Positions 5,264 through 44,408 of a DNA stretch of 64,000 nt are shown one piece after another; positions within the stretch are counted from its first letter, which is position 1, and every line of letters begins with the position of its first letter. Location: the NCBI GenBank assembly GCA_045106275.1, contig JBGCEK010000005.1:89-64088 (forward strand), written 5' to 3'. The notes beneath the pieces were generated by a model that had not been told where the DNA came from, did no database searches, and saw only the letters and a list, made by a program, of their open reading frames with translations. The DNA is from Pseudohongiellaceae bacterium (GTDB taxonomy: Bacteria; Pseudomonadota; Gammaproteobacteria; Pseudomonadales; Pseudohongiellaceae). The position numbers and the translations under genes are program-made.

Positions 5264-6943
5264 ATGTCAGATAAAGACCTTAGAAAATTTTCAAAAATCG
5301 TAGTCGATGGATTTGAACAAGCACCAAGCCGCTCCATGCTCCGAGCAGTGGGCTTCGATGATGAAGATTTTAAAAAGCCTCAGATAGGAATTGCATCAAC
5401 CTGGAGCATGGTGACTCCCTGTAACATGCACATCAATACGTTAGCAGAGGAAGTTAATAAAGGAACTGACGCCGCTGGTGGCAAAGGGGTCATCTACAAC
5501 TGCATCACAATCTCGGATGGCATTTCCATGGGCACCGAGGGTATGAAGTATTCCCTTGTATCGAGAGAGGTGATCGCAGACAGTGTTGAAACTGTCTCCG
5601 GCTGCATGGGCCACGATGGCATTATCACTATAGGTGGTTGCGACAAAAATATGCCAGGGTTACTAATGGGGATGGCTCGACTAAATAGACCTTCGATTTT
5701 CATTTACGGAGGTACAATCCAACCAGGCCCAAACCACACCAATGTGGTGTCTGTATTCGAAGCGGTGGGTGGACGAGCTGTCGGCACCGTCTCTGATATT
5801 GAGCTTAAGAACATTGAAGAAACCGCTATACCCGGCCCCGGTTCCTGTGGAGGCATGTATACCGCCAACACGATGGCTTCAGCCATTGAAGCGATGGGGA
5901 TGAGCCTACCCAATAGCTCGGCGCAAGATGCAATATCCGCTGATAAAGTTGACGATTGTTTAAGTGCCGGCGCCGCCATTATGAATTTGTTAGAAAAGGA
6001 TATTAAGCCTTCTGACATCATGACCCGCTCGGCCTTCGAAAACGCGATCAAGGTCGTAATTGCTCTCGGAGGTTCCACTAATGCCGTATTGCACCTTCTC
6101 GCCATGGCACACACTATTGGTGTGGAACTCGAACTGGATGACTTTACAACCATCGGTAAGAAAACACCGATGGTTGCTGATTTGAAACCCAGCGGTAAAT
6201 ACTTAATGTCCGAGTTAATCAAAATTGGTGGCATCCAACCTCTGATGAAAACTATGTTAGATGCAGGGATGCTCGATGGTAATTGCATGACCGTCACTGG
6301 CAAGACCTTAGCGGAGAATCTAGCGAACGTTGCCCCTTACCCAGCTGACCAAGATATCATCAAGCCCTTCGACAAGCCGATAAAAAAGGATAGCCACCTT
6401 GTAATTCTCAAGGGCAATTTGGCTCCCGGAGGCGCAGTGGCAAAAATAACAGGCAAGGAAGGACTGAACTTCACCGGCAACGCTCGAGTCTTTGAATCAG
6501 AAGAAGAATGTCTGCAAGGGGTTCTGAATGGTACCGTTGTCAAAGGAGATGTTTTAGTCATTCGCTATGAGGGACCAAAAGGCGCGCCGGGAATGCGGGA
6601 AATGCTTAGCCCAACCTCAGCTATCATGGGCAAAGGCATGGGTGAAGACGTCGCCTTAATCACCGATGGACGGTTTTCGGGTGGCTCCCATGGCTTTGTA
6701 GTCGGGCATGTGACACCGGAAGCGGTCGAAGGAGGCCCCATTGCTATTATCGAAACTGGTGACAGGATCTCTATTGACGCTGAAAACAACACCGTTAATG
6801 TCGAACTAAGCGAGGAAGAAATTTCAGCACGGTTAAGCAAATGGCAAAAGCCTGCGGCCCGATATACCCGCGGTGTTTTAGCAAAATTCGCCGCCTCAGC
6901 TGCATCGGCATCTGAAGGCGCGGTAACTGACAAGTATCTCTAA
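5264..6943 (+). CDS. ilvD: dihydroxy-acid dehydratase
   Basis: 559 aa. IlvD/Edd family signatures are present: APSRSMLRAVGF, PCNMH, SDGISMGTEGM, CDKNMPG, GSCGGMYTANTM, ITDGRFSGGSHG. Confidence 0.95.
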   Translation: MSDKDLRKFSKIVVDGFEQAPSRSMLRAVGFDDEDFKKPQIGIASTWSMVTPCNMHINTLAEEVNKGTDAAGGKGVIYNCITISDGISMGTEGMKYSLVSREVIADSVETVSGCMGHDGIITIGGCDKNMPGLLMGMARLNRPSIFIYGGTIQPGPNHTNVVSVFEAVGGRAVGTVSDIELKNIEETAIPGPGSCGGMYTANTMASAIEAMGMSLPNSSAQDAISADKVDDCLSAGAAIMNLLEKDIKPSDIMTRSAFENAIKVVIALGGSTNAVLHLLAMAHTIGVELELDDFTTIGKKTPMVADLKPSGKYLMSELIKIGGIQPLMKTMLDAGMLDGNCMTVTGKTLAENLANVAPYPADQDIIKPFDKPIKKDSHLVILKGNLAPGGAVAKITGKEGLNFTGNARVFESEEECLQGVLNGTVVKGDVLVIRYEGPKGAPGMREMLSPTSAIMGKGMGEDVALITDGRFSGGSHGFVVGHVTPEAVEGGPIAIIETGDRISIDAENNTVNVELSEEEISARLSKWQKPAARYTRGVLAKFAASAASASEGAVTDKYL

Positions 6944-18600: not shown

Positions 18601-20802
18601 ATGGCTATCAATCCTGCAAGCTTTCCCGCGAGTCGCCCCGGTAACGCCGCCACCATTATCCAACCTTGCCTTGGCAGCAGGCTCTATGAAGATGACAACG
18701 GCAGTATTCTTATAGGACAACCCCCCGAAGTGCTCAAAGGGTTGCTGCTACACGGTGTAAGTAACTTCGACACATTGGTTCTTCCGGATGTGAAAGAAAA
18801 AGGCGGATCACTGACGAACAGCCTCGAATTTCCACTTTATTTCTTCTTATTTGTCGCTAAAGGCCTCGAACAGAATCGAAAACTGAACATTGTTGGCGAA
18901 AAATCGGATATCAGTCACGCTCTCCGCTTATTACGAATTACTTTGTTTGGCCCTACCCGCCAAGAGCTCAACGGCTGGAACACGGAATCTGCTCTTAAAG
19001 AGGAATGGCTCGCTGCTTGCGCTGAACTTGCCCTCAAAGACAAGTACGGCGACACAATTCCAGTGCAGGATTTTTTCAACCTACACCCATTCGACGATGG
19101 TCGCGCAGTGGTCGGAAAGCAAACAATTCGCCACGTGGGCGAAGATGCCTATGCAATCACGTCCAAAGGCGTTAAAACTCCGGTTGACTTAAATGGAGAT
19201 ACAAGTACCCAACCTCCCTATCAAGTGTCCCCTGATTACGTGCCTGGCGGCCTTGTAAAACTAGGCATAGAAGTCCTCGGTGGCGCTTCCGGGTTCACTC
19301 CTACGGAAGCCTGTACCGGCCTCGCTCTCTGCTACAACGGCGAGTACATGCTGATCGACGCTATCCCTTTCTTAGATCAACATTTGTTCGCCAGAGGCAT
19401 ATCCAAGAACCAAGTCGCTTCGGTGTTTTTAACTCATCTTCACGATGATCACTCCTCACTTTTCCCACTTATGCTCATGCCCCACAAAATAGACCTGATT
19501 ACCACAAGGGAAATATTTTGTATGGCTATGGAAAAAGTGGCTTGCGGTTTAGGGTGGTCAGTAGATGCTGTTGCCGAGCATTTCAACCTCATTGAGGTAT
19601 GCATTGGCAAGCAACTAAACTATTTTGGCCTAACCATCACACCTCATGTTACAGTCCACAGCATACCCACTGTTGGAGCCACTTTTTCTACAGTAAACAA
19701 GGGTGTAGAGCGTGAAATTTGTGTTATAGGTGACAATCATTCCATGGCCGCCGTTCGCGATATGGGAGAGCGAGGGTTAATCCGTAATAGCACTATCCGT
19801 AATTTGGAGAGGCTCTACAGCGACAGCTATTCGCTTCTCGTGGCAGACGGGGGTGCTGGTGCAATTCACGGAGATCCGGCTGACGCCATCCAATCAGCAT
19901 CGGACAGGGTTGTGTTTGTCCATGTTGAAGAGCTTACCAACGAGTTCAACACTACCTTTTCCTTAGCCACCTCCGGCAAGCGCTACACTATTCTTGAGGG
20001 TGATTCTGCAATTTATACCTCTCAAATAAACCATTACTTAACTGAGTGGCTCGGCCGACCCTTTCCGAATCGATGGATGCGCAGCTTATTAGCGGATGAA
20101 GAGATTCGGCGTTACAACGCAGACGATGTATTACTTGTACAAAATGCGACAACGCGAGGTTATGTTTATCTCATTTTAACCGGTTACTGTGATGTGGTGC
20201 GCCATGACGGAGAACAGTTGCACAAAGAAGCAGAACTTCAAGCGGGCGATATCCTCGGTGAAATGGCAGTTATCACTGGCAAGGGGACGCGAAACGCCAG
20301 CGTAGTGGCTCGGACACCAGTGACTCTGTGCGTTTTTTCGGAAGAAACGTTTAAATCCTTTATAGTGGCCGAGGATTTTCAAGACAAACTTCTTAAGCAG
20401 TGGTCTCTGCGACCTGCAATCTCCCAGCAGCCACAATTGAAAGATATGAACTCGACAGTTGTCGAAAAACTCAGCCGCATTGCAGAAACTGAGACATTAC
20501 CCGCCGGCGGAAGTTTAGACCTAGATGCGAACCAATGGTGTCTGTTAAGCGAAGGCAATGCTGAGCTAGATGGAACTCCTATGACGCAAGACGATGACTA
20601 CGCAGCCAGACCATTTGCGGCAGAAAAAGTAGGGCTAGTTACAACCAAGCTAGGTTGTACACTATTACTATTCGACCAAAGCGCCCTTCACAACCTTCGT
20701 CTGGAATGCCCTCAACTGAACTATTACTTACGTAAGCTGCGAATCGAAGATTGGAGGCAGCAATTTGATTGGAAATTAGGGGTGGTCAATAGCCACGATT
20801 AA
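18601..20802 (+). CDS. MBL-fold metallo-hydrolase fused to a C-terminal cyclic-nucleotide-binding domain
   Basis: HxHxDH motif (FLTHLHDDHSSLF) in the middle. The cNMP-binding beta-barrel signature GDILGEMAVITGKGTRNASVVART lies near residue 560. The N-terminal ~230 aa are unassigned. Confidence 0.8.
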   Translation: MAINPASFPASRPGNAATIIQPCLGSRLYEDDNGSILIGQPPEVLKGLLLHGVSNFDTLVLPDVKEKGGSLTNSLEFPLYFFLFVAKGLEQNRKLNIVGEKSDISHALRLLRITLFGPTRQELNGWNTESALKEEWLAACAELALKDKYGDTIPVQDFFNLHPFDDGRAVVGKQTIRHVGEDAYAITSKGVKTPVDLNGDTSTQPPYQVSPDYVPGGLVKLGIEVLGGASGFTPTEACTGLALCYNGEYMLIDAIPFLDQHLFARGISKNQVASVFLTHLHDDHSSLFPLMLMPHKIDLITTREIFCMAMEKVACGLGWSVDAVAEHFNLIEVCIGKQLNYFGLTITPHVTVHSIPTVGATFSTVNKGVEREICVIGDNHSMAAVRDMGERGLIRNSTIRNLERLYSDSYSLLVADGGAGAIHGDPADAIQSASDRVVFVHVEELTNEFNTTFSLATSGKRYTILEGDSAIYTSQINHYLTEWLGRPFPNRWMRSLLADEEIRRYNADDVLLVQNATTRGYVYLILTGYCDVVRHDGEQLHKEAELQAGDILGEMAVITGKGTRNASVVARTPVTLCVFSEETFKSFIVAEDFQDKLLKQWSLRPAISQQPQLKDMNSTVVEKLSRIAETETLPAGGSLDLDANQWCLLSEGNAELDGTPMTQDDDYAARPFAAEKVGLVTTKLGCTLLLFDQSALHNLRLECPQLNYYLRKLRIEDWRQQFDWKLGVVNSHD

Positions 20803-32066: not shown

Positions 32067-33380
32067 TTAGGCTAATTTCTTCATTGCATCGACGAGCACA
32101 CCAATCTCATCTGCAGATGTGAATACTTGAGGAGTAATTCGAACGCAGCTGCCACTGGCCAACCCAACCCGAATAACCGTGAATATGCCGAACTCTTTTT
32201 CTAGGCGCTGCTGTAATTCTTGGGAATCTGCTACGGTATTTTTGCCAGGTAACCGAAAAGATGCCATGCCAGTCCAAGACTCTTCATCCAGCCCTCCGAG
32301 TAATTCAATATGACTCATAGTTTCAGCTTCGGTAGTCCAAAGTTGCCTCAAATATCGCAACCTAGCTTCTTTATTTGCACCTCCTATTGATTCATGGAAA
32401 TCGATAGCATGGGGTATGGTGATAATAGATGCGAAATTTGAAGTCGCCATGTGCACGCGCTTGGATGCTTGGGAGTTTTCAAGATCACTTTCTCCTGGGT
32501 AAGGAGAAATTTTCTCCAATGACCCCTTCTTCATATATAGCGCGCCTACCCCGACTGGAGAACCTATCCATTTATGTAAATTGAATCCTGCCCAATCAAC
32601 CTTAAGGTCTGAAATTTTGTAGTCCAACAAACCCCATGATTGCGCACTGTCGCAGATTACATCAATGCCCCGCGCTTTAGCCTCTGCGGCGATATCTGCC
32701 ACAGGCACTACCAGTCCGTGCTGGTTGCTAACATGAGTAATCAACATCAATTTGAGATTGGGGTTGGCGTCAAATGCAGCAACGTACATGGCCAAAATTT
32801 GTGCCTGAGTGGCTCTTTGAGGTATTTCTACAGCCACTGAATTAACCCCATAGGCTTTCTCCAACCAGACCATGGTTTCCTTAAAGCTTGGGTAATCTAA
32901 ATCTGCATAGAGAACTGAGTCATTGGGATTTAAACCTACATATTGTCTAATAAGGTTATGAATGGCCTCAGTGGCGTTTCGTGTGATAACAATTTCTTCA
33001 TCATCCGCTCCCAACGCCTTCGCTATTCGATGACCACTAAAGCTGGCATCCTCGCCATATCCCTTGCGCGCATAAAATGAATTTTGAGCATTGATCATCT
33101 TTGTCGCTGCCACAAAGGCGTCTTGAACCGGATGGGCCATCTTGCCCCAGTATCCGTGCTCTAAATTGACTATACCTTCTGTCCGATCATAGTAGCCGGC
33201 AACCTCTCTCCAAAAGCTTTCATCTTTTGCTAAAGCCGAAGCACCTGCCGATTCTGAAGGGCTGGGGAGGTTCGGTTTCTGAGGTTTAGCGGACACGATC
33301 CCAGAAAGCCCTAGAGCCGCACCTGACGCCATAGCACTTAAAACATTTCGTCTTGTTAAACCCACCTTCTTAACTTCCAT
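32067..33380 (-). CDS. Tat-exported PLP-dependent class V aminotransferase-fold enzyme (cysteine desulfurase/isopenicillin-N epimerase-like)
   Basis: Twin-arginine signal (LTRRNVLSAMASGAALGLSG). PLP-lysine region FNLHKWIGSPVGVGAL, with ITHVSNQHGLV upstream. Confidence 0.75.
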   Translation of the reverse strand: MEVKKVGLTRRNVLSAMASGAALGLSGIVSAKPQKPNLPSPSESAGASALAKDESFWREVAGYYDRTEGIVNLEHGYWGKMAHPVQDAFVAATKMINAQNSFYARKGYGEDASFSGHRIAKALGADDEEIVITRNATEAIHNLIRQYVGLNPNDSVLYADLDYPSFKETMVWLEKAYGVNSVAVEIPQRATQAQILAMYVAAFDANPNLKLMLITHVSNQHGLVVPVADIAAEAKARGIDVICDSAQSWGLLDYKISDLKVDWAGFNLHKWIGSPVGVGALYMKKGSLEKISPYPGESDLENSQASKRVHMATSNFASIITIPHAIDFHESIGGANKEARLRYLRQLWTTEAETMSHIELLGGLDEESWTGMASFRLPGKNTVADSQELQQRLEKEFGIFTVIRVGLASGSCVRITPQVFTSADEIGVLVDAMKKLA

Positions 33381-36987: not shown

Positions 36988-37575
36988 CTAATCGATATCT
37001 GCGCGCTTAGCCTTAAAGCCAAGTGGGTATTGAGGATACAATCTATAAAAAGCTGATAGGCTGAAGCTGTTTAACACTTTCTCGCTGTAACCACGACGCC
37101 GGTTTCTAAATTCTTCGTAGTTTTTGTAGCGTAGACTATGAAGGCAGTGTTTACACACTGTGAATCTTCGTGCAGTTAATAAATTCTCACCAGTGGCACT
37201 TAACTGCCTCAACTCATAGTCCTTACTAATTCTGGTTGTCGCCAACCACTTTTCGGCTGGCTTTTCCTTCGCCAGCTGTTCCAATTCACTGCAATTGGCA
37301 ACGTGATAGGTTGGCGTCACTGAAGAATTATTCGATTGCGCCTCATAGGGGGCATAAATTAACACCCGACTGTTTTTGAAAGCTAGGGTTTTATCTGGCA
37401 GTATCTTCAACTCACTCAATGCCAGAAAACGACCGCTCGAAGAAAGCTGTGAACGCTCCGCTCCATTCAAATGCTCAACTGGATCGAACAGTTCAAAATA
37501 ACCAAGCTGGGCGTTCCCCATTTTTTCCCGAAGAGAGTTAAAGGGAGCAAAGCTTTTGAAGTCAATAATTTTCAT
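36988..37575 (-). CDS. hypothetical soluble Cys/His protein, third gene of the MotAB-like operon (candidate effector)
   Basis: 195-aa ORF starting 12 nt downstream of the OmpA-like gene. No TM or signal peptide. Possible metal site H91/C95 (YHVANC) plus C141/C144/H146 (VCKHCLH), and a basic tail (RNRRRGYSEK, KAKRAD). No family recognised. Confidence 0.6.
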   Translation of the reverse strand: MKIIDFKSFAPFNSLREKMGNAQLGYFELFDPVEHLNGAERSQLSSSGRFLALSELKILPDKTLAFKNSRVLIYAPYEAQSNNSSVTPTYHVANCSELEQLAKEKPAEKWLATTRISKDYELRQLSATGENLLTARRFTVCKHCLHSLRYKNYEEFRNRRRGYSEKVLNSFSLSAFYRLYPQYPLGFKAKRADID

Positions 37576-37587
37576 AGAGAAGAAGGC

Positions 37588-38292
37588 TTAGTTCAATTCT
37601 TGGGTAATTCTGGAAAGTCGGGTTTCTGCATCTGTAACAACTACAAATTCAACCCTGCGAGAACTATCGGCATCCTCTTTGCCCTCTTCATCCAACACCA
37701 ATTGGGATGAAGACAGTCCATTAGCGGTTAATTTTTGACGCAGCCAGCCTTTATCATCGCTCACCTCATTCAAGCTGAGAAGCGTGCCAAGAGCCGCCCT
37801 CGTCCGTTCTTGCGATAGGGCCATATTACGCATGTAAGCATCATCACTACTACTCGCTTGGGACCATGAACTGGAAGTATGGCCCTCTATACGCACTTCC
37901 AGCACCTCATCGCGATAAGGTGCTGAGGTCAATATGTTCAAATAGCGGGGGAAAAAATCAGCCAAAATACTCACAAATTCTGGCCTAAGCTGAGAATCAC
38001 CTTCTTCGAACAGAAGCTCAGTATTGGTAAATCGAAATCTCAAATCCTCACTCAATGACGCTCCCCATTGAGGTAAATCTTCTTCAAACTCCCGCAACAA
38101 GTCTTGATACAGTTCTTCTTTTAAATCTTCGTAGAGTAAGACAACTTGTTCTATTTCTTCATTCTTCCGCTCTACGATGACTAGGTACAAAACAGCTATC
38201 AGCAAAAACAGCATCATCAAACCACTCATCAGATCGCTTACTGCGATCCAATGCTCTTCTGAATCATGTTCAATTTCGGATTCAAACATCAT
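37588..38292 (-). CDS. MotB/OmpA-family stator-like protein (ZorB-like architecture)
   Basis: Single N-terminal TM with a MotB-type conserved Asp (HWIAVSDLMSGLMMLFLLIAVL). C-terminal OmpA-like peptidoglycan-binding domain (LEVRIEGHTSS...NMALSQERTRAALGTLL...SRRVEFVVV). Confidence 0.8.
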   Translation of the reverse strand: MMFESEIEHDSEEHWIAVSDLMSGLMMLFLLIAVLYLVIVERKNEEIEQVVLLYEDLKEELYQDLLREFEEDLPQWGASLSEDLRFRFTNTELLFEEGDSQLRPEFVSILADFFPRYLNILTSAPYRDEVLEVRIEGHTSSSWSQASSSDDAYMRNMALSQERTRAALGTLLSLNEVSDDKGWLRQKLTANGLSSSQLVLDEEGKEDADSSRRVEFVVVTDAETRLSRITQELN

Positions 38293-38298
38293 CGGATT

Positions 38299-39525
38299 CT
38301 ATTTAGTTGGCTGCTTTGAATTCGCCTGGTTTTCAGCAAGAGCCACCACTTCCTTAAGACGATCGGTTAGGGGCATATAATCGTTAACAAACTTCTCAGA
38401 CAATGCTGTTAGCTGATACCCAAAAGTTTGCAAGGCTTGGGTTAGCTCCTTTTCCATTGACTCATCCAACATCTGCATTTGTTGCTGAGTTTTGCTAGTC
38501 ATAGCTTCCACATGTTGAGCTAGTCCGCTATGAGCTTCTTTTACAGACTTTGCCAGATCCAAATTAACTTCCTCGACAGTGCCTGAAATATTAACCGCTG
38601 CTTGGCTAAGAACTTCTTGCAACACTTCGTTATTCTGCTCGATGCTTTTGCTTAGCTTCACGGTTAATTCTTCCACATAACTTCCTAGTGCTGGCAGCCC
38701 TTCTGTGGCTTGGCCAACCAGCCCAGACAGTCCAGAAAGATAACCCTCAAGACCACTGGTTTGACTCTCAAGCCCCTTTAGCAAATCACCTAACGAACTT
38801 GCTATAGCGTTAAATTCCTTAGAATGGGAGATCATCGCTTGGTAAGACTCACTGGCGTGATCTATAACTTTCAAACTAGATTCTTGCGCCTTCAACATAT
38901 CATTGAGCTGCGAGGAATAGCTTCGTTGCCATTCCAAAAGCTTGCCGAGCGATGCATTAAATTCTTTAAAGTTTTCGCCATACTGAACTTCAATTCGACT
39001 ATTGAATTCTGTCACCACCGCAGTCACTGCCGCTGTTAATGCGTCTGTGTTTGAATCCACAAGTTGAGACTGATAAGTTCTGTGCAAATCTAACATGGCC
39101 GCCGATTGCTGGGCGTTTTCCTGCCGTAGCGACGTAAAATTCTGGTTAAGTTCCTCCAGTGCTTCATGCAGCTGCTCTGCCCCTATTGAGCTTTCTGAGG
39201 AAGACTTTGCGTGGTTAATAGACTGAATGGCAAAGCGTAGACGAATACTTAAGGCACCTAGAATTCCGGTTATTGACGACCACACAGCCACACCAAGACC
39301 GTCAATCATCATCGGAACGCTGGTCTCAATATCAGCACTGTCGAACTGCATCAGTCCAAATGCTATGCCTAAAAAAGTGCCAAAGATTCCAAAGCTGGTC
39401 AGAATTGAAGGAGCATTCTTGATTGTTTGTAAGGAATAACTAGGACCATGGAAATAGCCTACAAGCAACAACATGAAGACAACTAGAATCCAGGTGATTG
39501 TAGTCAATTCGCCAAAACCTTCCAT
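38299..39525 (-). CDS. MotA/TolQ/ExbB-family channel protein with ~300-aa C-terminal helical tail (ZorA-like architecture)
   Basis: Three N-terminal TM helices carry the family signatures ILTSFGIFGTFLGIAFGL and GLGVAVWSSITGILGAL. Residues ~100-408 are Q/S/L/E-rich with very few prolines and look like extended helix/coiled coil. Confidence 0.75.
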   Translation of the reverse strand: MEGFGELTTITWILVVFMLLLVGYFHGPSYSLQTIKNAPSILTSFGIFGTFLGIAFGLMQFDSADIETSVPMMIDGLGVAVWSSITGILGALSIRLRFAIQSINHAKSSSESSIGAEQLHEALEELNQNFTSLRQENAQQSAAMLDLHRTYQSQLVDSNTDALTAAVTAVVTEFNSRIEVQYGENFKEFNASLGKLLEWQRSYSSQLNDMLKAQESSLKVIDHASESYQAMISHSKEFNAIASSLGDLLKGLESQTSGLEGYLSGLSGLVGQATEGLPALGSYVEELTVKLSKSIEQNNEVLQEVLSQAAVNISGTVEEVNLDLAKSVKEAHSGLAQHVEAMTSKTQQQMQMLDESMEKELTQALQTFGYQLTALSEKFVNDYMPLTDRLKEVVALAENQANSKQPTK

Positions 39526-39824
39526 AATCCCTGTATATCGCCCTTATAATTCGATTTTGTATTCATTGCCTCAGAACTGGTTAAACTGAGTGAACCGTTC
39601 GCAGCAGTTGACAGTATTCATCACTTCTATTGGAAGTCTATTGAAAGTGTTTCGATAGACTACCACAGGAGTAATCCGAGAACCGCCCCTTAGAATCTAG
39701 GTTGACAGGCATACCGCCTACGCCCAGACTGAGACTCATCCTCGCCAGCTTTCACCATTACTATCCGCGAAAATGGCAGCTAAATAAAGTTCAACAAAAC
39801 ACACTATTACAGAGAAACTTCGCC

Positions 39825-42013: not shown

Positions 42014-43471
42014 ATGCGCATTGTTTCTGGAAAATCTCTTATCAGTAGTGTGTTTGCACTAACCACTAGCTGGTTGTTAGCGGGCACAGTATCGGCCCAA
42101 TCATCAGATGTCACTTTTCACAAGGATATCGAACCAATTTTGCAGCGAAGCTGTCAAAACTGTCACCGAGATGGCGGTGCTGGCCCAATGCCTCTGATCA
42201 CTTATGATCAGGTGGCTCCTTATGCAGGCCTAATCGAATACAAAACGGGCTTACGAGATCGCGCCGGTGCCATGCCTCCTTGGTACATGGAAAAAAATAT
42301 TGGCATTCAGTCTTACAAGGACGATCCTTCATTGAGTGATGAAGAAATTGCCGCAATTTCCACGTGGGCTCGCTCAGGAACACCAAAAGGCGACGTCGCC
42401 GACGCGCCAGAGTCGTTGGTATTTGACGACAGTGTTAAATGGCAGGCAGGTCAACCTGACCTAGTTGTTGTTATGAACGACGTGACCAAGCTAGCTGGAA
42501 CACCAGACTGGTGGGGTGAGATTGATTACCGTCCAACGGGCCTCACCGAAGATCGCTACGTTAAGTCAGTTGAAGTGGTTGAAGTTAATGATGTAGACAA
42601 TCAGACTGGTACCGGCAGAGAAACAGTGGGTGGGCGCTATATTTTTCATCACATGATTTGGGGCACAGCCCAGCTCGACGAGAATGGAGAGCGTGCAGCC
42701 GGCCAAATCTCTACTCCTTGGCCAGTGCATGAAGTTGGCCGTAATGCAGATATCTTTGATGAAGACGCGGGCCGTCTGCTTAAAGCCGGCTCTTGGATTG
42801 TTTCAGACTCTGTTCACCTCCACTCAAACGGGCGAGATACTACCGGTCACTTGGAAGTGGGCTTTACCTTCCACGACAAAGACTACGAACCCAAATACCA
42901 AAATGCCTTCATCGGTTTAGGTAATGGGTCGGATATCAGCATCCAGGGAAACAAGAAAGACCAAGAGCTCCACGCTTACACCGTGCTTAACCAACATACT
43001 AAGGTCATTACCTTTGAACCTCACCTTCATGCACCGGGTGAACGTATGTGCCTAGAAGCAATTTGGGGTTATACGATTGAGACTTTGTCTTGCGTTGGCT
43101 ATGACCACAACTGGGTTCGTGGCTACCCTTATTCTGATGATGCAGCCCCTCTTCTTCCGAAGGGCACAATTCTTCATATCACAGGTTACATGAACAACAC
43201 TGACACTAACCCCAATGTTCCAGACCCCAGAAATTGGCAGGGCTCAGGCAATCGCTCTGTGACTAACATGTTTATCGATCTAGGTATTCGCGTCACGATG
43301 ACTGACGAGCAATTTGCCGAAGCCATGGAAGAACGCAGACAAACCCTAAATCTCGGTCCAAACGATCACGTTATTGGCTGCCCACTGTGCCTTGCGCCTC
43401 TGGTTGCGCCGATCGCTGAAGAAAGCGACAGTGACGACAAGGCCGGCAATGAAGTGGCTGCTAGGGACTAG
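42014..43471 (+). CDS. secreted cytochrome c domain fused to a PHM/DBH-like copper monooxygenase-type domain (putative)
   Basis: Signal peptide. Heme c site CQNCH lies in FHKDIEPILQRSCQNCHRDGGAGPMPL with a downstream AMPPWY. His/Met clusters are spaced as in copper type II ascorbate-dependent monooxygenases: IFHHMIWG, SVHLHSNG, PHLHAPGERM, and a late Met (TNMFIDLG). Confidence 0.55.
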   Translation: MRIVSGKSLISSVFALTTSWLLAGTVSAQSSDVTFHKDIEPILQRSCQNCHRDGGAGPMPLITYDQVAPYAGLIEYKTGLRDRAGAMPPWYMEKNIGIQSYKDDPSLSDEEIAAISTWARSGTPKGDVADAPESLVFDDSVKWQAGQPDLVVVMNDVTKLAGTPDWWGEIDYRPTGLTEDRYVKSVEVVEVNDVDNQTGTGRETVGGRYIFHHMIWGTAQLDENGERAAGQISTPWPVHEVGRNADIFDEDAGRLLKAGSWIVSDSVHLHSNGRDTTGHLEVGFTFHDKDYEPKYQNAFIGLGNGSDISIQGNKKDQELHAYTVLNQHTKVITFEPHLHAPGERMCLEAIWGYTIETLSCVGYDHNWVRGYPYSDDAAPLLPKGTILHITGYMNNTDTNPNVPDPRNWQGSGNRSVTNMFIDLGIRVTMTDEQFAEAMEERRQTLNLGPNDHVIGCPLCLAPLVAPIAEESDSDDKAGNEVAARD

Positions 43472-43478
43472 TTGATTG

Positions 43479-44408
43479 ATGAATGTGTTCACAAGAGAAT
43501 TTGACGCCAAAGCCTTGCTAGTGGCTGCGGCGTTAGCATTACTTGCCCCGCTGAGCGTTATGGCAGAGTCATATCAGACTGGCCAGCATGTGGAGCCCGC
43601 CTATGAAGGCTGGCGCCCCAACCCTGACGGCACTTTTAGCCTTATGTTTGGCTACATGAACGAAAACTGGCTAGAAGAACCAAACGTGCCAGTAGGCGCA
43701 GAGAACTTCTTTTCACCCGGAGATGCTGATCGCGGTCAGCCTACCCATTTTCTGCCTCGGCGTAATCGCTTCAATTTCGAAGTGGTAGTACCGGCAGATT
43801 GGGGAGACCGGGAATTAGTATGGACTCTCAATGTAAACGGTGTCGAGCGAAAGGCATACGCTACCCTGCAACAGGATTATCAGGTAGATAATATTGTCAT
43901 CGCCTCTGAAACTGGCTCGCTCGGAGCTGGCACAAGCAGCCCTGAATCACGTGCCAATATCCCTCCGGTAGTCACAGTTTTAGGGGATGCTATTCGAACT
44001 GTGCGAGTGGGCGAACCTTTAGAACTTCGTACCAGAGTTGAAGATGACGGTCTTCCTAAACCAAGACGGGAATCAACAACATCGGAACGCGCGTTAAAGG
44101 CTCGCATGATGCGGCCACCTACACGTATCACTGTCGGCAAGGTAAACGGATTATTCTTGTCATGGAATGTTTACCGGGGTGAAGGAGAAGTTACCTTCGA
44201 CCCACCGCTCCCGAAGCCTTGGGAAGATACCCGCACCTCTGCCAACTCTCCTTGGGGAGCTCTTTGGTTGCCACCCGAAATTCCAGAAGACGGAATCTAC
44301 GAAGTGACTGCAACATTCGATAAGCCGGGCACTTATATTTTATGGAGCAGAGCTGACGATGGCGGCCTATACCACGACGGCTACATCACAGTAAATGTCA
44401 CGGAATAA
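43479..44408 (+). CDS. hypothetical secreted protein, likely co-transcribed partner of 42014-43471
   Basis: Signal peptide (ALLAPLSVMAES). The start is 8 nt after the upstream stop (TTG at 43476 or ATG at 43479). No family recognised. Confidence 0.55.
   Translation: MNVFTREFDAKALLVAAALALLAPLSVMAESYQTGQHVEPAYEGWRPNPDGTFSLMFGYMNENWLEEPNVPVGAENFFSPGDADRGQPTHFLPRRNRFNFEVVVPADWGDRELVWTLNVNGVERKAYATLQQDYQVDNIVIASETGSLGAGTSSPESRANIPPVVTVLGDAIRTVRVGEPLELRTRVEDDGLPKPRRESTTSERALKARMMRPPTRITVGKVNGLFLSWNVYRGEGEVTFDPPLPKPWEDTRTSANSPWGALWLPPEIPEDGIYEVTATFDKPGTYILWSRADDGGLYHDGYITVNVTE

Follow-up and report, generated by a model that had tools for sequence, protein, structure and literature searches.

What does a Zorya-type motor do when the protein encoded beside it carries no nuclease? 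The question is raised by three adjacent genes in a Pseudohongiellaceae bacterium (assembly GCA_045106275.1, contig JBGCEK010000005.1). We analyzed positions 89 to 64,088 of this contig, a stretch of 64,000 nt referred to here as the window. An earlier reading of the window (the original prediction) had proposed a compact Zorya-like module made of a tailed MotA/ExbB-type channel, a MotB/OmpA-type partner, and a soluble protein of no recognizable family. Our analysis is computational throughout, and the genomes compared are mostly metagenome-assembled genomes (MAGs). It firmly supports a module of the type II Zorya lineage with an apparently intact motor, whose third protein is predicted, with equally firm support, to be a ZorE-family partner consisting of DUF8245 only. 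Our map of open reading frames (ORFs) reproduced three tightly packed ones on the minus strand, spaced 6 and 12 nt apart:

38299..39525, minus strand: gene 1, zorA-like, 408 aa; three transmembrane (TM) helices (MotA/ExbB-type channel) and a helical cytoplasmic tail of ~300 aa; matches PADLOC ZorA2 and 8vvi_F.
37588..38292, minus strand: gene 2, zorB-like, 234 aa; MotB-type TM helix with Asp19 and an OmpA-like peptidoglycan-binding domain; matches PADLOC ZorB2 and 8vvi_A.
36988..37575, minus strand: gene 3, short zorE-like, 195 aa; DUF8245 zinc-site domain alone (H91, C95, C141, C144), without HNH.
39526..39701, strand undefined: 176-nt intergenic region between zorA and a divergent CopD-like membrane-protein gene, from the ORF map; it may have a promoter role.

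The first two genes match type II Zorya profiles over almost their full length. Gene 1 matches the PADLOC ZorA2 profile (PDLC00637; E 2e-88) with residues 12-400 on profile positions 13-419 of 420, and it aligns with the type II ZorA of S. kujiense (PDB 8vvi_F, 378 aa; E 2e-41) in three stretches that span the TM region and the tail. Gene 2 matches ZorB2 end to end (PDLC00641; E 1.9e-88) and 8vvi_A over residues 8-232 (E 2.9e-49); the TM aspartate (Asp19; VSDLMSG) and the OmpA-like core RIEGHTSS...SQERT are conserved in this alignment. Weak matches to the ZorA1 and ZorB1 profiles of PADLOC were also seen. The MotB_plug and OmpA Pfam matches of gene 2 fell below threshold, MotB-family matches were weak, and TolQ matched gene 1 at only E ~0.5. 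The channel motif GIFGT of gene 1 also occurs in E. coli ZorA, a protein reported to be driven by H+; sequence alone permits no call between Na+ and H+ for the channel. All three proteins fail the NCBIfam equivalog cut-offs (129 bits against 700 for ZorA2, 208 against 400 for ZorB2, and 39.9 against 600 for ZorE). Since these cut-offs are centered on E. coli, we consider the three proteins distant members of type II, and this distance explains why gene 3 is labeled as hypothetical in the public record, where the exact protein is found in a Pseudohongiellaceae MAG.

The tailed channel, its MotB/OmpA-type partner, and the overall architecture of tailed ZorA, ZorB, and soluble partner were thus read correctly in the original prediction, as PADLOC type II profiles match all three proteins. 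Its concern that gene 1 is too short for a ZorA does not hold: the S. kujiense ZorA (8VVI) has 378 aa, so a short ZorA is normal for type II. Nor is this a wholly undescribed Zorya subtype, as the same profiles match and gene 3 is ZorE-like. Placement of the genes in a described type by profile searches, which the original prediction had named as a refutation of novelty, has thus come true in part.

The module shares with the type II systems of E. coli ATCC 8739 and S. kujiense (8VVI) the gene order zorA-zorB-zorE, which is identical in every related locus that we inspected. Also shared are a ZorA with three TM helices and a cytoplasmic helical tail of ~270-300 aa (homologous over its full length to 8vvi_F), a ZorB with the TM aspartate and an OmpA-like peptidoglycan-binding domain (homologous to 8vvi_A), and the N-terminal DUF8245 of the third protein with its H/C/C/C zinc site. 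It differs in lacking the central HNH nuclease of ZorE, in being relaxed at many DUF8245 residues that are fixed in HNH-bearing forms, in scoring below the NCBIfam cut-offs, and in occupying fixed housekeeping contexts, whereas HNH-bearing relatives lie on plasmids or in island-like settings. Type I Zorya (ZorABCD) has the same peptidoglycan-anchored, ion-driven ZorA5B2 motor with a tail that signals to soluble partners, but its ZorA1 has ~700 aa and a much longer tail, and its partners are ZorC and ZorD, the latter a helicase/nuclease (Hu et al., 2024, PMC11946911). No ZorC or ZorD homologs were found among the 10 flanking genes tested. The 5:2 motors MotAB/PomAB and ExbBD/TolQR share the channel core and the TM aspartate and OmpA-like domain of the B subunit, but have neither the long cytoplasmic tail nor a counterpart of the third gene.

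The third gene is where this module departs from the known system. The product of gene 3 is soluble, as had been predicted, but it does belong to a family: precomputed annotations assign it to DUF8245 (PF26739), and it matches the PADLOC ZorE2 profile (PDLC00643) with an E-value of 1.2e-27. The family name was taken from these annotations, as the copy of Pfam used for our domain scans did not contain PF26739 and so gave no match for gene 3 or its homologs. Both ZorE profiles are matched only in part, at positions 3-182 of 282 in ZorE2 and 58-170 of 358 in the NCBIfam ZorE. In an alignment of short and long forms, the HNH module of the long relatives (CxxC...HHxNG...N...LCxxCHA...HxH) lies beyond about residue 185. 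The short forms, gene 3 included, terminate right after a conserved YPxYPL motif, ahead of the HNH start, and a Pfam search found no HNH match in gene 3. The earlier suspicion that the partner is not an HNH-type ZorE is therefore upheld by the alignment. A frameshifted or hidden HNH coding region is excluded because just 63 nt of noncoding DNA lie between the stop codon and the convergent M20 peptidase gene. We also considered a split ZorE with the HNH domain in an adjacent gene and rejected it, as metabolic or transport genes make up the flanks in every locus inspected.

What remains of the protein is conserved at its core. H91, C95, C141, and C144, the ligands of the N-terminal zinc site, do not vary among 127 sequences, short and long. 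An AlphaFold2 model built from an alignment of these 127 sequences reached a predicted local distance difference test score (pLDDT) of 90.1 and a predicted TM-score (pTM) of 0.82, compared to a pLDDT of 68 for an earlier model from 25 sequences. Foldseek found no fold match for either model in the PDB (best E 0.39, TM-score < 0.2), and a sequence search of the PDB with gene 3 gave chance matches only. Thus, with no significant structural neighbor in the PDB, the fold gives no clue to function. An argument for DNA binding from charge was dropped, as gene 3 has an isoelectric point (pI) of 9.5 yet the median pI of the short clade is 7.6.

Canonical ZorE consists of an N-terminal DUF8245 with a zinc site (H90), a central HNHc domain, and sometimes a C-terminal nuclease-like domain (PMC13192584, a 2026 preprint). 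The HNHc residues described for the E. coli protein are Y189, H226, K231, N234/H235, and H247/H253, and the substitutions H226A and H90A each abolish E. coli Zorya II defense (PMC13192584). ZorE of type II Zorya is a nickase that is recruited to the membrane by ZorAB upon infection (Mariano et al., 2025, PMC11890865). Anti-phage activity has been assayed for the E. coli type II system only (PMC11890865, PMC13192584). With a DUF8245-only partner, the published effector step, nicking by HNH, therefore cannot be the mode of action here. The survey in the preprint retained only ZorE proteins with a recognizable endonuclease domain. Its ZorE variants associated with Druantia III have the N-terminal DUF8245 in common with gene 3 and show that ZorE is modular around that domain; with HNH and a further nuclease-like domain added to DUF8245, they represent the opposite extreme to the DUF8245 that stands alone here.

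Gene 3 is not an individual truncation. A word-indexed protein search with gene 3 found 138 homologs, and the 120 matches listed were all 172-219 aa in length and all annotated as DUF8245. We also searched 1.84 billion cluster representatives exhaustively with a profile and obtained 713 matches. Among the best 150 of these are 69 short forms (152-230 aa), ~68 long forms (248-538 aa), and 12 fragments; judged by eye, nearly all of the long forms carry the HNH motif. When the domain common to these forms is placed in a neighbor-joining tree, 49 short representatives (one per cluster at 50% identity) make up a pure clade to which the window protein belongs; the other short sequences are scattered singletons. 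The purity of this clade argues for a single, old HNH-less lineage, and together with the intact ORFs and invariant zinc ligands it led us to reject truncation of gene 3 alone.

The lineage has changed in a consistent manner. Positions that are 80-100% conserved in HNH-bearing forms (YIRD 74-77, T97, M101, R106, R109-Y110-V111, G118, F120, and L138) are all relaxed in the short clade, which retains the zinc site and the ~70 N-terminal residues, including D61/T63/K67/R70 and an N-terminal MxLxDF...LR...M segment. Y110 is tyrosine in 100% of long forms. Going by its numbering, it would correspond to Y109 of E. coli ZorE, a residue that faces DNA (PMC13192584). The profile matches also include a 515-aa protein (P0246) that combines DUF8245 and HNH with a SprT-like, metalloprotease-type domain, and a 401-aa protein (P0224) with a C-terminal region of ~230 aa that has no HNH motif or assigned family. 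These may be further ZorE effector variants. The variety of C-terminal modules (HNH, HNH plus extension, HNH plus SprT-like) fits DUF8245 as a common adaptor with exchangeable effectors.

The genomic position of the module sets the short forms further apart. We scanned one genome per GTDB species and recovered 49 loci, 44 of them from Pseudohongiella or Pseudohongiellaceae-type MAGs. In all 44, the module or its remnant occupies one slot, between SURF1/DUF6644 on one side and M20/DUF1232 on the other. All three ORFs are intact in ~38 of the 44 species. In these intact loci ZorB is the best conserved of the three (64-89% identity to the window protein, 70-89% in most species), followed by ZorA (60-81%) and ZorE (48-67%); the flanking genes range from 45 to 95% across the same loci. 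A fixed slot, and module identities that fall within the range of the flanking genes, indicate vertical inheritance at a core-genome position. We judged selection from ORF integrity, invariant residues, and comparison with flanking genes, synonymous sites being saturated at 50-67% amino acid identity. That the module belongs to a maintained, vertically inherited clade outside defense islands is firmly supported.

The exceptions are instructive. Six of the 44 species loci (L041, L043, L045, L050, L051, and L053; slot ~5-10.6 kb) show decay in place. In L050 and L051, an N-terminal stub of ZorA is fused to the last third of ZorE, and in L053 the remnant is ZorE residues 137-191. In L041, L043, and L045, most of zorA and zorB is gone and zorE is interrupted by premature stops; one zinc ligand is also substituted in the zorE of L041, and an aldo-keto-reductase-like gene and a secreted-protein gene fill the zorA/zorB gap in L045. 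The premature stops led us to reject the idea that zorE is kept on its own after loss of zorAB. That the three genes are retained and lost together argues for one functional unit, and because zorE gains stops once zorA and zorB are deleted, selection must maintain it in the intact genomes. The original prediction would have failed if gene 3 were not co-conserved and the pair were tied to motility or Tol/Ton loci; we found that gene 3 is strictly co-conserved and decays with the pair, and that the 10 flanking genes tested are free of such functions.

HNH-bearing relatives keep different company. The Psychrobacter sp. plasmid pA17BP1 (NZ_MN657036.1, 7461 bp, mobilizable; L094) carries an HNH-bearing zorA-zorB-zorE set of 363/223/291 aa and, besides this set, only replication and mobilization genes and one small hypothetical gene. 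This plasmid would serve well as a compact, canonical type II reference in comparative work. On a Vibrio plasmid an HNH-bearing relative sits beside HipA/DUF3037 and DinJ genes, and another lies in an island-like context beside a PD-(D/E)xK gene. We found no close member of the short clade in the plasmid collection and no relative whatever in the phage collection. The enrichment in defense islands for which a neighborhood survey had been proposed was not seen: none of more than 55 loci of the short module has defense or mobile-element neighbors, and the flanks are fixed housekeeping genes.

Outside Pseudohongiellaceae, in further marine Gammaproteobacteria, the short module is found in another recurrent setting. 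The genes oadGAB encode the Na+-pumping oxaloacetate decarboxylase. In 9 of the 13 non-Pseudohongiellaceae contexts with enough upstream sequence, oadB is immediately upstream of the module. In L046-L048, L052, L055, L057-L060, and L074, oadB shares the strand of zorA, with 100-400 nt between its end and that gene. Reinekea blandensis, two Saccharospirillum species, and Aestuariirhabdus have the order dus/oadA/oadB/zorA/zorB/short zorE. The Reinekea and Saccharospirillum loci have a TRAP transporter downstream, as does a Granulosicoccus-labeled MAG whose contig starts inside zorA. More divergent metagenomic members of the short clade (29-36% identity to gene 3) are directly downstream of oadG-oadA-oadB and have differing downstream genes. 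As the sampled lineages are related, these counts are not independent observations. The remaining four contexts are again counted as housekeeping: L072 has no oadB within 2.4 kb upstream, L063 has diacylglycerol kinase, PAP2, and glycosyltransferase genes as neighbors, and, as a third recurrent setting, in two unrelated metagenome contigs (L071, 3075-4157; L073, 3018-4028) a thioredoxin-reductase-like flavoprotein gene is upstream on the same strand of a module with a ZorE of 157-158 aa. The window itself has no oad genes. In L059 an Arc-family repressor gene (5354-5686, minus strand) lies between oadB and zorA on the opposite strand, a sign that the zor module is regulated separately in that locus. 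The linkage to oadGAB may reflect co-transcription or a functional tie to the Na+ cycle. We found no mention of Zorya together with oxaloacetate decarboxylase in the literature searched, the coverage of which is incomplete.

How, then, might the module work? Judged from the solved structures of homologs, ZorA and ZorB would form a 5:2 peptidoglycan-anchored, ion-driven motor in the inner membrane, with the five ZorA C-termini bundled into a long cytoplasmic rod. The motor would convert an event at the envelope into a cytoplasmic signal passed through the ZorA tail. The short DUF8245 protein would be the partner coupled to that tail, as suggested by the three genes being kept and decaying together, and it would not cut DNA but act as an adaptor or binder without enzymatic activity, with an output other than ZorE-catalyzed DNA nicking. 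The cellular role could be a response to the state of the envelope, or a kind of "core" immunity relying on an enzyme of the host in trans. We consider it probable that the motor signals via its tail to a non-enzymatic DUF8245 adaptor and that the module has a conserved cellular role rather than that of a classic mobile defense system. Of the two roles, the conserved cellular one is somewhat more likely than the mobile anti-phage one, because of the fixed housekeeping position across the family and the frequent oadGAB adjacency elsewhere. A more specific version holds that the short-ZorE clade is a domesticated, or an ancestral pre-defense, Zorya motor with a housekeeping role that is tied to the upstream Na+-pumping oxaloacetate decarboxylase, e.g., by drawing on or monitoring the sodium-motive force or the state of the envelope, and that signals to the nuclease-free DUF8245 adaptor. 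We regard this version as a doubtful possibility.

The most serious competitor is a working anti-phage type II Zorya, in which ZorAB would sense envelope damage by phage and recruit the short ZorE to the site of entry, with the nuclease supplied in trans (by the host, e.g., RecBCD, or as an unlinked HNH protein) or with DUF8245 blocking incoming DNA by binding it. In its favor, each of the three proteins has a homolog in a defense system validated by experiment, the DUF8245 zinc site is essential in E. coli Zorya II, whose activity depends on the host RecD context (PMC13192584), and the module is dispensable in the way of accessory defense genes, being lost in ~14% of the species loci found. 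We nonetheless hold this explanation to be rather unlikely, though worth keeping in view. Defense or mobile-element neighbors are absent from all of the more than 55 loci, the plasmid and phage collections yielded no short-clade member, and the short clade is relaxed at residues that in canonical ZorE face DNA or adjoin the HNH domain. A core-genome slot fixed family-wide, with oadGAB adjacency kept over deeper divergence, is also unusual for a defense system. Much less credit is due to the view that the module is what is left of a canonical type II Zorya, now without its nuclease, decaying, and non-functional. The missing effector domain, and the further deletion and pseudogenization in place in several species, would fit such a remnant, but the HNH-less clade, at least 49 clusters strong at the 50% identity level, shows intact ORFs and no variation in the zinc ligands, and the ~38 of 44 Pseudohongiellaceae species with intact ORFs keep ZorB at an identity (64-89%) exceeding that of many housekeeping flanks. 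The quick gain of stops in zorE after deletion of zorA and zorB also implies that selection acts elsewhere. We therefore judge the locus, from its sequence and that of its relatives, to be a real and probably functional nuclease-less variant of a known system.

An orphan stator of the MotAB/ExbBD/TolQR type, serving motility, Tol-Pal, or TonB-type transport next to an unrelated gene 3, is scarcely credible. It would account for the general MotA/ExbB and MotB/OmpA similarity of the channel core; the ZorA2 and ZorB2 profiles and 8VVI are far better matches, with the Zorya-specific tail included, TolQ is barely matched, and gene 3 is co-conserved and co-decays with the pair. Flagellar, Tol, and Ton domains are absent from the 10 flanking genes tested, and so are genes for rotor, TonB, or TolA partners. 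The original prediction had found no such genes in the window; this stands for the 10 flanking genes, tested by domain search, and the rest of the 64-kb window is unannotated.

Several points weigh against a conserved cellular role with a non-enzymatic adaptor. What is proposed for the function of the short clade comes from computation. The effect of H90A in E. coli (PMC13192584) means that DUF8245 may have an HNH-independent activity of its own, and since the AlphaFold2 model has no fold match, a hidden catalytic site in gene 3 is possible. A conserved position could mark a very stable "core" defense locus. Loss from ~6 of 44 species shows the module to be dispensable, as defense systems are; clean losses are invisible to our search, and the retention rate is an upper bound. 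The tree that defines the short clade is crude (midpoint-rooted, BLOSUM distances). The oadGAB linkage may equally be an inherited gene order with no functional link.

The neighbors of the module in the window are of the housekeeping kind. On the zorE side are genes for M20 peptidase, DUF1232, PI-PLC, a class-V aminotransferase, and a sulfatase, and on the zorA side are those for the CopD-like membrane protein, DUF6644, SURF1, and two conserved proteins without a Pfam family. PADLOC found no defense proteins in these flanks except for a generic cysteine-desulfurase-fold match. This is the class-V aminotransferase (32067-33380, minus strand), which has a cysteine-desulfurase fold and matches SspA (E 4e-23) and DndA (E 2e-21); as there are no other Ssp or Dnd genes nearby, a defense annotation would be a false positive. 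The two conserved proteins (42014-43471, 485 aa; 43476-44408, 310 aa; both plus strand) are among the best-conserved neighbors across Pseudohongiellaceae, with identities of 76-95% for the former and, in most species, 72-88% for the latter. Neither has a Pfam family; a cbb3-type cytochrome c motif in the former falls below threshold. Adjoining SURF1, they may be an uncharacterized respiratory or oxidase-assembly pair. In two other, related loci, a protein with cyclic-nucleotide-binding and metallo-beta-lactamase domains (L001, 20459-20606, 733 aa; L003, 17471-19696, 741 aa) is encoded ~7-10 kb from the module and matches the Anti-Pycsar Apyc1 family, weakly in L001. It could be a host cyclic-nucleotide phosphodiesterase, and 18601-20802 may hold its counterpart in the window. 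The module is compositionally unremarkable, with a GC content of 0.42-0.45 compared to 0.42-0.51 over the window. There are no tRNA genes in the window, an Rfam scan of it gave no matches, and scans for promoter and terminator consensus sequences gave site counts not above chance expectation.

The system type is thus already known as type II Zorya, and its HNH-less, chromosomally fixed variant is apparently undescribed. We found no description of an HNH-less ZorE clade in the literature searched, again with incomplete coverage, and DUF8245 was mentioned there only in the 2026 preprint (PMC13192584). Annotation of the PADLOC type would call these loci "Zorya type II," which overstates present knowledge. 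The current model of type II Zorya ends with DNA nicking by the HNH domain of ZorE. A large, old, and maintained clade that has the motor but no nuclease implies a separate function for DUF8245, the simplest being to couple to the ZorA tail, and the clade offers a natural "effector-less" system in which to study the motor and the DUF8245 domain. Vertical inheritance and recurrent oadGAB adjacency raise the testable idea that Zorya-type motors serve, or arose from, non-defense roles. If true, a housekeeping Zorya motor would be the first non-defense function for a motor of this type and would point to the origin of the defense system.

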